A stretch of DNA of 64,000 nt from Bispira polyomma (taxonomy: Eukaryota). The translations under genes were made by a program, and so were the position numbers. Below, in pieces: positions 10,357-32,053 of this stretch (position 1 is its first letter; every line of letters begins with the position of its first letter). The notes below the pieces were generated by a model, which saw nothing but the letters and a program-made list of their open reading frames with translations, was not told the origin of the DNA and searched no databases. The stretch spans positions 31,558,001-31,622,000 of the forward strand of contig OZ287755.1 of NCBI GenBank assembly GCA_965649765.1. Direction: 5' to 3'.

Positions 10357-10670
10357 AGTAGTTACCTTTTGAAAGCTATTCTACACTCCCCCCCCCCCCC
10401 CCGAAGATCAGAAATCACCTTAAGATCTTTCAACACCACCCTATGACTATGGTAAACCACCCCAATGATCAGCAAAGCCCATATACAAAGCGTTGATCAT
10501 TTTGTGAATTATGCAGAGAGGTTGTAGCAAAATGATCAACACTCAAGGGTCTGATCTTTCAGAGGGGGATTATTATATTTGTTCATTGTGTATGAAAGCG
10601 TGCTAGACCTTCTCAGGTCAAGCTTCTGCGTTCATTGTGTATTAAAGCGTGCTCATGCTTCTACACACTT
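10357..10670 (+). repeat. Left terminal inverted repeat
   Basis: Reverse complement of 31750-32053, with ~10 substitutions and a poly-C length difference. Confidence 0.96.
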
Positions 10671-10697
10671 GATCTTTTCAGAGGGGATTATTATATA

Positions 10698-10867
10698 TGT
10701 ATTCCTTTAAAGCTCTTTGAGATTGATCATTTTACTGAATATATGTCCTTTGAAGGGAAAAAGAGGTTGTAGCAAAATGATCAGTGTCAGACTGATCATT
10801 TTACTGAATATATGACAACGTTGTGTAGGCTATTATATGAGAGCTTTGTATTGAGATAAAATTTGCT
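10698..10867 (+). repeat. Subterminal ~170-bp repeat, direct copy at 31498-31666
   Basis: tgtattcctttaaagctctttgagattgatcattttactgaat...ttgagataaaatttgct occurs in the same orientation just inside both TIRs. Confidence 0.92.
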
Positions 10868-10999
10868 GAGTCTGCTTTAATTTTATTTTTTGAAAGGGTA
10901 GACTTTACATAAGATTTTAGCTCATAGCAATAATTTTATTTTTGAAGGTGAATCAGTACAATAGCAAATGAAGCATATATTATATTTCTTTTGAACTTA

Positions 11000-11100
11000 A
11001 TAGACAATGGGTGATAGACAATGGGAGAATCTTGTAATTTTGATTGGATAGAATCTATCCAATCAAAACTTCACCAAATATAACGTTATTTATAAATTTA
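11000..11100 (+). promoter_or_regulatory. Putative promoter of the rightward gene block
   Basis: Tandem atagacaatggg x2; perfect palindrome ttttgattggataga-a-tctatccaatcaaaa (11038-11068) containing two CCAAT boxes; TATAAA at ~11091; ATG at 11141. Confidence 0.55.
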
Positions 11101-11140
11101 CAAAACAAAACAACCAATTTTTTAAATTTGAAAGAGAAAC

Positions 11141-11597
11141 ATGGAACAACCAGACGTAACAGATTCAGTTGTTGGCGAGGGGTTATTCTGTAATTCTGTC
11201 AAAGGAGGTTTTTCACTTTGTACACCAGCTGCTTCTTCTCCTTCTTCTAAACCTTGCAGTGGAAAAGCTACCAGAGGATCTTCTATATATTTAGGAGGTC
11301 GAACAGACGCAAACCCAGGATTTTCCTTTTGGAAAGACGAAATTCTTTTACAAGTACGACAACACAATAGAAACTTGTAAGACCTGGCCTAAATCTCACC
11401 CGCTTCAACCTGAACAACTAGCTAAAGCTGGATTTATTTACACAGGAACAGGAGACAGCTGTAAATGTGCCTGGTGTAAGGTTGTTTTACATCAATGGGA
11501 TTCTTTTGAAGATGTCTTTTTTGAACATAAAAGACACACAAAAGGAAATTGTGCTTTTGTTCAGTACTTATTTCCATCCGAGCCTCCACGTTTTTAA
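11141..11597 (+). pseudogene. Single-BIR inhibitor-of-apoptosis (IAP)-like protein, frameshifted
   Basis: After a 1-nt frameshift in the T-run at 11327-11330 the frame reads KTWPKSHPLQPEQLAKAGFYYTGTGDSCKCAWCKVVLHQWDSFEDVFFEHKRHTKGNCAFV (C-x2-C-x16-H-x7-C); stop at 11595-11597. Confidence 0.9.
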
Positions 11598-11611
11598 CTG
11601 AAAGAATAACT

Positions 11612-28041: not shown

Positions 28042-28329
28042 GTAATTTCCATATTTATTCTCTAAAGTATACATTAAAAGTTGGTATTTATTTATGTAAT
28101 TTCAAATAAAAATAATGTATTAAAGTAGTGTCTTTTCAGTCTTTTCTTTGTATCTGTGACATCATACTGGTAATACACCATAAAACTACTTCCACTACTA
28201 CAGCACACACACACTACAACTATATGTCAAACACCTTTATTGTTCATTCTTTTAAACAGTCTCTAGCTTTTATGTTATCTGTTCACTGTTGTTTAAAGGT
28301 TAAGAATAGATTATTCTTTTAAACAGTCT

Positions 28330-29772
28330 CTAGAGTTTGTTTAAGAAAACCCTGATGTTTTGTGTGAACACTTCAACATCTTCCATTCTGATCAAACATC
28401 CCTTTCCTGGTACTGGGTAGTCTCCTCCTTTAAACAATTTATCAAACCTCCTGATGGAGATATACGGATGATTTGTGTCCATAGTCGCTTTGACACCATC
28501 GCTACCTAAAATTATCCTCAAGAACGTGCGTCTGTCTTCTTTTGTGTTAATTATGGCTTCAATCAGGTCATCCATATGTACCAGCAATAGCTCTAGATGA
28601 TCCGGGTACAACCTCAACACTTCATTCTTGTACCGAGTTAGGAGTGTGTAGTCTTTTGTGGTGTCAATCTCCACTGAGAAGTGGTCATTGATGGTTCCTA
28701 CGAAACCATAGCTGCAATAAAAATAATAATAAAAATTTATTAGTTAGTGTTTAAGGAGAAATTTTAATTCGTTATTTCTTTCTTTCTTCTACTTCTTTTT
28801 CATTTGTATTTTTTAATTATAATTTTATATATCAGAAATATACAATTTTAAACAGATTTTATTTCACAAAATTTATCAACCATACAATTTGTATGTGTTT
28901 ATTTTGTTTTGGTTTGGTTTATACCTATTTGAGATTTGGCTTTGGTTTGAGAAATTTTTCCTTTTAAGTTGTTATTCTTACAGACTTGAACGTTAGACAC
29001 ACTTTGACATACAATGAACACATATAACTCTCAAAATAATATTCGCGTTACGAGTTCGTTATGATAAAATTATTTTAAATTGAATTTTTAAATCACTGGA
29101 AATGAACAATCCATAACGTTCACATTATGATTAAACTAAATGAAGGTTATGTATTGTTTATTTCCAGTATTTTAAAACGTTATATAAATGTACTCACTTT
29201 GTGGCTGAGTTATTAGAGCTGTCTGCATTATTGTTGTTTGCAGCTTGTTGTGGGGTGCTTGCTGGGCTTCTTGCTGGGCTGTTTGCAGGGCTGCTTGCTG
29301 GGCTGCTGTTGTTATCGCTGCTTCTGCCGCTGCTGCTGCAGCTGCTGCTGCTGCTTTGTAGGCTGAGGGAAGGGTTTGGGGTTTAGGAGGGGGTTTTATG
29401 GAATGAGCCATTGAAGCTAGGGCTTGAAACCCTGGTGATAAGTTACAAGCTCCTCAAGTTACAGTAGCTGTACTTGTGGAGGGTTTTGGTTTTCTGGGTT
29501 TGGAGGCTTGTTTAGGTTTTTTGGGGGCTGGAGGTGGTTTCAAAGGCGTGTAGGGTTCTACCCATTCCAAATCAGAGTCATCCTTGGAGACCTCTTCTTC
29601 CGTGTGATCTTCCTCCTCGGTCATATTATCATCGAACAAGGAACTGTTTAAAAGAACAATAAAAAACCATAAATTTCTCCTCTTTAAAATATAGTGTTTC
29701 TATAATTCTAGTTAAAATTAAATTGATTTACAGGTATACTACTTGGTGAATTAACTATTATATTTGTATATT

Positions 29773-29833
<61 letters not shown>

Positions 29834-30176
29834 TGCATTTTTCTTAAATATTAAAATTAAATGTACATATTCATAGTTTTGTATTTAAAGCAAAATATAA
29901 ATCAAATCTATCCGCTAAAAAGGCTTACAAAATAAATTGTATTCCAAACAATTAATTAGATATATTTATAAAAGACTGTGTTTCTACATTCAGGTAAATT
30001 GTTTTTAATTGAATGTATTACAGAACATTAATTACATATATTTATACAAATCTAAGTTTCTACATTCAGGTAAATTATTTTCTAATAATTCAATAAAATC
30101 TTTACCTTTTCGATTTTTTCTGTTTCTTGTTGAAATCTTTCTCCTCTCCACAACCTTTTCTTTTCATTGAACTCAT
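28330..30176 (-). pseudogene. Three-exon gene: basic N-terminus, acidic/Pro-Lys/Ala-Gln low-complexity region, C-terminal PC4-like domain
   Basis: Exons 30176-30106, 29643-29198 and 28711-28330 with phase-2 GT-AG junctions. In-frame TGA at 29454 and a probable 1-nt deletion in the Q/A repeat. YISIRRF...PVPGKGCLI is PC4-like. Confidence 0.65.
29775..29831. repeat. (TA)n microsatellite (others at ~17432-17464 and ~44297-44338)
   Basis: Direct reading. Confidence 0.95.
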
Positions 30177-31394
30177 TTTAAAACGTAAACTTATCCAAAT
30201 CACAAAACTATCCAAAATTTGTCAAAGTTGTAATTATTTCCTGAACGATGTAAATATTAATAATTTTATGATGTTCACCTCTTTTATAAAGGATGTCTTG
30301 CTAATAATCATCACAAGAATAAATTCAACCAATGAAATAATTCTCTCGGAATTGAGAAAGTCTACTAACCAATAAAAGTTTAATGTTTATTCTGTCAAGT
30401 GTTTCTTAGAGGTGGAGGTTTTGTGTTTGTATGATGTACCTATAGATGTGTATATGTTTGTGTTCCAGGTAATGTTTTAAGTGCTAAGAGATTAGTGTTT
30501 TATTGATACAAAATCTTTGTTCAATGTTTGTTCTGTATTAACAGATTATCTAGTTATTAGGTGCAACTGCTCTGTTTTATTTAAAGAACAATACTTAAAA
30601 GCCTGCTATTATTAAAGATTTAAAGGGTGATCAGTTCATTTTACTCTGTCAAGGAACATCAAATAAAAATGTGTGCATAAACATAAAATGCTAAAAATTG
30701 ATTCACTATTTAAAGCTTTTATAAATCTCTAATGGATGGAGCTTTTAACTGATCTTTGATTTTCATGCTATTCCTAAGAACTTTTTACAGGTCATTGTTT
30801 TTTTTACCTTTTCTACAAAAAAAACCTTCAGTCCGAGTTGATGTTTATTCAATCGGGGTTGTCTATCTGATCAGCTATCATGTTTTAAATCATTTGAGAC
30901 TTATGTTTACCTTACAGGTTTTACCAGCTTATTCCTGCTCTACTGTGTTAAGTAGATAAATACAGTTCTAAGTAGAGAACTTCCATAAGCTGGGATTATA
31001 TACTCCAACATCTGTAAGGTACAGAGGTGTTGATTGATTATAAACAACACAATTTTTCTATCAAAAGCAACTGATTTATACATTGGTTTGATTATATCCA
31101 CAAACTCTAACATAAGAGGATTGAGTTGTATTATTGGAGGTCTATCAATCTCTTTACTTTGATTTTCTTGTTAACAAGTTTTACACCCATTTGAGAAGTG
31201 TGTAGAAGTGTGTGTAACCTCAGGCTACAATCTCATATTACTCTGAAAGGCTAGTTTAAGAAGTGTGTACAGCTAAAAGGGTGTTTAAGGGTGTTAACTC
31301 TGAAACACTATTTTCTATACAAGATTTGTCTGAGGTTTCTTCACCTCAGTACATCAGTCAACTCTCTTTTTTTCCTTTTTAAAAGGTTTACCCT

Positions 31395-31666
31395 TCCTTT
31401 AAAGCTCTTCAGACTGATCATTTTACTGAATGATCATTTTACTGAATATGTCTTTTGAAGGGAAAAAGAGGTTGTAGCAAAATGTTAAAGACTCAAGTGT
31501 ATTCCTTTAAAGCTCTTTGAGATTGATCATTTTACTGAATATATGTCCTTTGAAGGGAAAAATAGGTTGTAGCAAAATGACTGATCATTTTACTGAATAT
31601 ATGACAACGTTGTGTAGGCTATTATATGAGAGATTTGTTCTGTGAAACATTGAGATAAAATTTGCT
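31395..31666 (+). repeat. Right subterminal repeats (partial copy ~31395-31485 plus full copy 31498-31666), direct to the left subterminal block
   Basis: Same TGATCATTTTACTGAAT...GGTTGTAGCAAAATG modules as 10698-10867. Confidence 0.9.
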
Positions 31667-31749
31667 AGGTCATTTTTAATTTCATTGTACTTCTGTATAG
31701 GAAATGGTCTACATGAAAGGTTTGATCATATTTCTAAACAACACAATGG

Positions 31750-32053
31750 AAGTGTGTAGAAGCATGAGCACGCTTTAATACACAATCAACACAGAAGCTT
31801 GACCTGAGAAGGTCTAGCACGCTTTCATACACAATGAACAAATATAATAATCCCCCTCTGAAAGATCAGACGCTTGAGTGTTGATCATTTTGCTACAACC
31901 TCTCTGTATAATTCACAAAATGATCAACGCTCTGTATATGGGCTTTGCTGATCATTGGGGTGGTTTACCGTGGTCATAGGGTGGTGTTGAAAGATCTTAA
32001 GGTGATTTCTGATCTTCAGGGGGGTGTAGAATAGCCTTCAAAAGGTAACTACT
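31750..32053 (-). repeat. Right terminal inverted repeat
   Basis: Ends ...aaaggtaactact; reverse complement of 10357-10670. Confidence 0.96.

Follow-up and report, generated by a model that had tools for sequence, protein, structure and literature searches.

A decayed Polinton copy in Bispira polyomma points to a family with a NADAR-fold tail on its DNA polymerase and a conserved set of accessory genes

The Polinton element examined here lies in a 64,000-nucleotide stretch of the Bispira polyomma assembly (GCA_965649765.1, contig OZ287755.1, forward-strand positions 31,558,001 to 31,622,000), called the window below and numbered from its first letter. It is a mutation-decayed integrated copy, complete in outline and not intact, and belongs to a large radiation. 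With moderate confidence, we propose that active members of this radiation copy themselves as free linear DNA, and that the NADAR-fold tail of their protein-primed DNA polymerase (PolB) binds rather than cuts. The window copy is a fossil that adds little except pointing to its family.

The element, its family and the tail of PolB

An initial annotation, made from the letters of the window, had placed a Polinton at 10357-32053 with two terminal inverted repeats (TIRs) and a target-site duplication (TSD), and all of these were borne out (Table 1). AGTAGT-ended TIRs, a 6-bp TSD and a length within the range of 13-25 kb identify the element as a Polinton, and 6-bp TSDs also surround four other two-ended family copies. 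In the sense of intact, the word complete used by the initial annotation does not hold. PolB, integrase, ATPase, major capsid, protease, IAP and membrane gene 1 carry breaks; 5/6 core genes are affected, and the copy falls short of an intact Maverick, in which all core open reading frames (ORFs) are open. The frames left open are PC4a, two 105-aa ORFs, the probable minor capsid and the basic protein. Compared with an open relative, the window PolB consists of 7 pieces in shifting frames (aligning at 64-91%) with 6 in-frame stops. It also lacks 235-252 nt near position 20868 that are present in 7/7 sister copies spanning the place.

Searching the genome with the TIR gave 18 matches. Eleven retrieved segments are sister copies, mostly 2-4% apart, and family copies diverge by 1.0-2.0% from the commonest letter in each alignment column. 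The sister copies are all broken: the ATPase is open in 1/8, the major capsid in 2/8 and the IAP in 4/8, and no frame in 12 family segments is longer than 1,048 codons, where ~1,820 would be expected for PolB. With the PolB end as protein query, the genome yielded 130 places at 43-100% identity (883 candidates, 130 scored), and membrane 1, PC4a and PC4b gave 151, 150 and 142 matches, respectively. Twelve elements of other subfamilies, with PolB identities of 88-50%, were retrieved for comparison. In a quick tree of PolB, eight elements of this genome form one clade with support 100, which agrees with the distinct lineage suggested in the initial annotation.

Contigs of two public runs covered 30/30 and 29/30 bins over window 17500-25000, with scattered differences from the window. 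They are probably collapsed family paths, by which the window breaks are not confirmed and a free form is not shown. One sister copy (L029:1338-8298 and L033:3580-L034:8210) is split by ~302 kb at a TA microsatellite matching window 17422-17464, and carries the same TSD, ACCATT, at both outer ends.

NADAR had been listed as a separate accessory gene. The match instead sits in the PolB frame and forms its end. A single open frame leads from the polymerase palm to the tail in one sister copy, and at five places in the genome one open frame of 1,799-1,823 codons runs through PolB and tail; in one of these frames Pfam places NADAR at residues 1685-1814. Fold comparison of a model of the tail by Foldseek returned 8bau (E 2e-4) and 2b3w (E 2.3e-3), the next match being at E 0.9.

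The catalytic positions of NADAR (Phytophthora numbering) were transferred from an alignment of P0006 with 8bau. In each of the 8-9 family copies and in 12/12 other elements, other residues stand at the K50, R93, E125 and W133 positions and E43 is kept, so that only E43 is left of the catalytic set E43, K50 and E125 in this genome's elements. The W89 position is also kept, as in NADAR/YbiA hydrolases. In a characterised enzyme the equivalents of K50 and E125 are necessary for hydrolysis, and their loss abolished activity (PMC11543638). Because K50 and E125 are replaced across this genome's elements, the tail is probably a binding module and likely non-cutting.

The fusion extends beyond this genome. 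The PolB end with its tail was searched against 1.84 billion representatives, a query that favours fused hits, so the counts give no frequency: the best 150 outside hits comprise 56 with PolB end and tail, 30 more with tails of at least 100 aa, 63 with short tails and 1 with the tail only. Among 19 chosen outside proteins, 15 match Pfam NADAR, 10 of them above cut-off, and 7 of those 10 are at least 1,500 aa long. All three catalytic positions are present in 2/84 outside tails and two in 10/84, leaving the full set incomplete in 82/84; P0006 and P0013 are tails with all three. Six outside polymerases (P0021, P0022, P0033, P0046, P0048 and P0060) have shortened NADAR-like tails of 110-135 aa in which the first and last motifs are kept and the middle is lost. 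In the quick PolB tree (273 columns, labels by pattern) the tail is clustered, with 10 changes against 25 when shuffled and at least 4 forced, and a single origin is not shown; Pfam NADAR matches two of the rows labelled tail-less, and the short rows may be truncated sequences.

No report joining NADAR and polintons was found in the literature, including the accessible part of the pPolB domain paper, although supplements, Repbase and subscription reviews may hold one. A survey of viral NADAR proteins (PMC9503650) leaves polintons unmentioned. On this search, the PolB-NADAR fusion is an apparently unreported addition to Polinton polymerase architecture.

Accessory genes across the subfamilies

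The initial annotation described about 9 kb of accessory sequence, which corresponds to the 8,950-bp right arm of the element. To follow these genes, the 12 distant elements were compared. IAP, PC4a, the PolB end, membrane 1 and a small conserved gene missing from the earlier gene list are present in 12/12, membrane 2 in 11/12 and PC4b in 10/12, in constant order; one missing accessory gene lies just beyond the retrieved stretch of its element. The accessory genes recur in sister copies and distant subfamilies and are not one-off cargo.

The ratio of nonsynonymous to synonymous substitution (dN/dS) was calculated pairwise between one young element and three family copies plus four distant elements, saturated pairs being left without value. 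Core genes gave low ratios (major capsid 0.07-0.18, ATPase 0.08-0.15), and constraint on capsid, ATPase and protease is as strong as on PolB. Values for accessory genes were mostly low too: IAP (0.08-0.30), PC4a (0.12-0.17), the PC4b domain (0.10-0.14), the first exons of membrane 1 (0.20-0.36) and membrane 2 (0.12-0.32), and the transmembrane helix and tail of membrane 2 (0.07-0.20). The NADAR tail gave 0.18-0.33 and a control frame 0.80-1.43. Gene order is conserved and selection mostly purifying; therefore the accessory genes belong to the element.

The IAP, the two PC4-like genes and the two spliced membrane proteins named in the initial annotation were all recovered. The IAP matches PF00653 (BIR) at 60 bits against a cut-off of 22.9, with a single BIR and no RING match; its anti-apoptotic role is putative. 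PC4a matches PF02229 at E<=1 in 15/17 aligned members (best 2e-7), the window member itself being unmatched, and a PDB profile also supports PC4. PC4b matched PF02229 by sequence in 0/16 members; its model (pLDDT 93.6) is a tandem PC4 like Pur-alpha repeats I-II (Z 11.8, root-mean-square deviation 3.3, 118 aligned), and its top viral structure match is MOSUB of a lancelet adintovirus (TM-score 0.77). The PC4/Sub1-like fold is thus supported for PC4a by profile and for PC4b by model and fold search, and the two are homologous (hhalign 94.6%). Alignments and a model were needed for this, as single-sequence PDB searches of both genes returned nothing relevant. Both proteins are more simply explained as single-strand DNA-binding replication factors than as host manipulators.

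The two membrane genes are predicted to be spliced. GT donors are found in every copy spanning the predicted introns, and AG acceptors with a single exception. The window copy of membrane gene 1 has a stop in exon 1 and an approximate 3' end, and exon 2 of membrane gene 2 is out of frame. Membrane 2 ends in ETDL in 5/6 family copies, in ETDL or ETDF in most distant elements and in EIDL in the window. The ETDL/ETDF end fits a class I PDZ-binding motif. Neither membrane protein has a Pfam match above cut-off. LRRNT matches were all weak (membrane 1 in 1/9 members at E 0.0012, membrane 2 in 0/6; in PDB, SLIT2 at E 0.031 and VLR at E 0.47). Among 5.8 billion proteins, of which those of near length were covered, neither membrane 1 nor PC4a had a homolog; membrane 2 lay outside that search. 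Three distant membrane-1 loci were examined, and all lie in Polinton DNA. Paralogy of the two ectodomains is not claimed, their alignment being weak (hhalign 36.6%). In a distant subfamily (L068:6996-8600, minus strand) the membrane 2 stalk is expanded into a long Thr/Pro-rich mucin-like repeat.

Core genes and neighbouring sequence

The initial annotation had counted all virion and replication genes as present. This stands for PolB, integrase, ATPase and protease; both capsid genes are probable, assigned by position and conservation only, with location and constraint as would suit a double jelly-roll major and a single jelly-roll minor capsid. The A32-like ATPase and the adenain-like protease occur at the expected positions, with sub-cut-off Pfam hits on open sister or relative frames. 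The integrase matches PF00665 (rve) at 34.7 bits against a cut-off of 32.6, and a sister copy has a Chromo match of 37.1 bits. Exo and Pol A/B/C motifs follow in order in one open PolB relative, as in a protein-primed PolB. Inside the polymerase domain a motif was seen by eye (Pfam MTES_1575, E 0.03), which we take to be VSR-like; the VSR pattern is unmatched in the reference open PolB. Scans of viral and metagenome contigs gave no relative of the major capsid.

Table 1. Features of the Polinton element in the window
Feature	Position	Strand	Description
Left TSD	10351-10356		CCAATC, 6 bp
Polinton element	10357-32053		21,697 bp, bounded by TIRs and TSD
Left TIR	10357-10670	+	314 nt, starts AGTAGT; 97% complementary to right TIR over 275 nt
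BIR-only IAP-like gene	11141-11597	+	PF00653; ~151 aa in sister copies; two frames here (frameshifted)
PC4a	11612-12130	+	PC4-family, C-terminal His/Cys motif, 172 aa; open; Atlas lead 0.88
Packaging ATPase	12442-13073	+	frameshifted; Walker A; Pox_A32 E 0.0007-0.006 (below cut-off) on open relatives
Conserved 105-aa ORF	13125-13442	+	position of Maverick PM (gene order per PMC8097293); open; in 12/12 other elements
Second 105-aa ORF	13439-13756	+	position of PZ; open; faster evolving; 6/12 other elements by tblastn
rve integrase with chromodomain	13760-14890	+	in-frame stop ahead of chromodomain
Probable minor capsid	14887-15288	+	133 aa; open
Basic protein	15291-15647	+	118 aa; position of PW
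Probable major capsid	15644-16922	+	425 aa in relatives; one stop and one frameshift
Adenain-like protease	16898-17367	+	frameshifted; Peptidase_C5 E 0.001-0.0035 on open relatives, below Pfam cut-off
Protein-primed PolB	17605-22800	-	~1,800 aa in relatives; N-terminal C2H2 fingers, VSR-like insert, NADAR tail
NADAR-fold C-terminal PolB domain	17608-18108	-	PF08719 30.3 bits, cut-off 35.1 (match at 17632-18027)
Membrane gene 1	22930-24240	+	signal-like stretch, Cys-capped ectodomain, transmembrane helix; predicted introns 23499-23615, 23844-24067
Small conserved gene, first exon	24871-25020	-	50 codons; no known family; ends at GT donor; dN/dS 0.10-0.36
Membrane gene 2	26481-28041	+	signal-like stretch, Cys-capped ectodomain, Ser/Thr-rich stalk, transmembrane helix, conserved tail; predicted introns 26803-26982, 27188-27314, 27444-27868
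PC4b	28330-29624	-	low-complexity exon 1 broken here; predicted intron 29197-28712; open exon 2 is tandem PC4 (Pur-alpha-like)
Right TIR	31750-32053	-	304 nt, ends ACTACT
Right TSD	32054-32059		CCAATC, 6 bp

The next exon of the small gene at 24871-25020 was not found. The frames at 30097-30372 and 30753-31170 are not counted as genes, since they gave dN/dS of 0.8-1.4 or are missing from 12/12 other elements. An imperfect 91-nt inverted repeat at window 24283-24501, also present in sister copies, lies between the converging 3' ends of membrane gene 1 and the small gene. Outside the element, a separate GC-richer retroelement at window 58555-63056 (plus strand) has CCCH finger, reverse transcriptase and RNase H matches; we take it to be perhaps DIRS/Ngaro-like. 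A reverse transcriptase fragment (RVT_1, 34 bits) lies at window 57970-58446 on the minus strand.

Proposed life cycle and comparison with known systems

In the cycle that we favour, an active element would excise, and PolB would prime on a terminal protein at the TIRs and displace one strand, which the two tandem-PC4 proteins would coat. The NADAR tail, placed after the thumb, may contact either the template or bases that carry ADP-ribose. Packaging of the DNA would fall to ATPase, capsids and protease, and the integrase would reinsert it with a 6-bp duplication. During the free phase three products may act on the host cell: the BIR-only IAP and two predicted surface proteins, of which one has a PDZ-type C-terminus.

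Non-autonomous fold-back elements of a distant subfamily bear on the free form. Four of these (L106+L100+L101+L107, L108+L104+L105+L109, L110-L112 and L113-L115; 19.7, 18.0, 13.9 and 10.9 kb, respectively) were recognised among 6 loci examined. They have the same AGTAGT end on both sides, a 6-bp TSD and accessory-arm genes, and neither capsid nor integrase was matched in them. Three of the four are palindromic over nearly their full length, with 98-99% identity between the arms and centres that differ; the fourth is short-armed. Right-arm-only fold-backs with their own TSDs fit free linear replication and integration in trans, and by analogy they resemble snap-back defective genomes integrated in trans. 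No clear description of fold-back Polinton elements was found in literature listings. A 39-kb element (L119-L123) has both arms folded back and 99.6-99.9% identical, and is either a recent event or an assembly artefact.

Several points weigh against this proposal. Every step of the life cycle is one that we infer, and binding of the NADAR tail to nucleic acid is predicted. Selection between subfamilies is evidence of function in the past and not of infectivity. The codons for dN/dS were picked by tblastn, which biases distant pairs downward, and constraint is weak in membrane 1 exon 2 (0.33-0.69) and in the membrane 2 stalk (0.57-0.87). The predicted introns are modelled from GT-AG sites and phase. 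The major capsid has no Pfam match and no PDB sequence match. Finally, E43 is invariant and D130 mostly acidic in the genome's elements, making a remodelled active site possible.

The lineage may instead spread only within cells as a self-synthesising transposon, its capsids serving movement within the cell or germ line and its accessory genes keeping the host cell alive. We consider this unlikely. About 130 integrations in one genome, the lack of any free form seen and the predicted introns, of which intact vertebrate Mavericks have none (PMC8097293), are in its favour. However, capsid, ATPase and protease are constrained like PolB, a pattern read in that article as pointing to particle formation and reinfection, and the conserved predicted surface proteins are hard to account for by transposition alone.

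A bolder reading, to which we give a similarly low probability, is that a broad animal Polinton clade fused NADAR to PolB to read or erase ADP-ribose that host enzymes put on the element's DNA, and that in this lineage both spliced orphan surface receptors, of which one has a PDZ-type tail, are true infection genes. If true, its NADAR-PolB part would suggest that marine invertebrates defend themselves against Polintons by DNA ADP-ribosylation.

It is somewhat less likely still that the tail is an active, remodelled eraser travelling with the polymerase and removing host-placed ADP-ribose from element DNA. E43 is kept in 8/8 family copies read and in 12/12 other elements, next to the mostly acidic D130, and the tail is under selection. 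The 2 outside tails that retain all three catalytic positions and the 10 that retain two also suit an eraser, as does the clam enzyme CARP-1, which makes the guanine-N2 ADP-ribose link cut by NADARs (PMC11543638). Conversely, the replacement of K50, R93, E125 and W133 includes the residues whose loss abolished activity in the characterised enzyme, and the full set is incomplete in nearly all outside tails. That the accessory genes are passively carried host fragments without a role, or peculiar to one copy, is very improbable and largely refuted: host counterparts exist for IAP and PC4, the genes seem to bear introns and the stalk exons are weakly constrained, yet their order is fixed under purifying selection in subfamilies down to 50% PolB identity and the three distant membrane-1 loci examined all lie within Polinton DNA.

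The reading of a decayed copy from a freely replicating family retains part of the infectious toolkit proposed in the initial annotation. The accessory genes are recurrent and under selection; on the other side, the window copy is a fossil, the PC4 proteins are simpler as single-strand DNA-binding proteins and NADAR belongs to PolB. The comparison with adenovirus E1B/E3 is an analogy, with no homology shown. For the initial annotation, a gene set already typical of a described clade would refute its reading, and this is partly so, as IAP and PC4/MOSUB are known from adintoviruses (PMC8502044). Accessory regions at the flanks and selected core genes have likewise been described before (PMC8097293).

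Accessory genes under selection across a radiation provide testable indirect evidence on whether animal Polintons are infectious viruses. The PolB-NADAR fusion is a sequence marker for a wide clade. Its tail is a small domain for linking ADP-ribosylation to Polinton replication, in which mostly catalytically dead-looking copies and a few intact-looking ones form natural controls.

Vertebrate Polinton/Mavericks have accessory regions on both flanks, most copies are degraded, core genes are under purifying selection and intact copies are intronless (PMC8097293). The element shares with them its AGTAGT ends, 6-bp TSD, size, converging modules and the gene orders atp-pm-pz and int-mcp-pw-Mcp-pro. 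In contrast to the vertebrate Maverick described there, the ATPase module adjoins the integrase and not PolB, PolB is ~1,800 aa long with a NADAR tail, and the accessory genes are fixed across the lineage and apparently spliced. Adintoviruses (PMC8502044) have the same core set, a MOSUB (PC4/Sub1) gene and a reported IAP; IAP labels also accompany the maps of Mytilus and Pinctada. They differ in that two PC4 paralogs are present here, and the readable supplement text of that article has no NADAR label. Mollusc pPolB2 Polintons with a VSR insert (bioRxiv 10.1101/2023.08.22.554363) may be comparable, through the putative VSR-like motif inside the polymerase domain here; by search listing, NADAR does not occur in that paper. 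The NADAR/YbiA hydrolases (PMC11543638; PDB 8bau, 2b3w) share with the tail its fold and the E43 and W89 positions. Unlike them, the tail is fused to a DNA polymerase and has K50, R93, E125 and W133 replaced.

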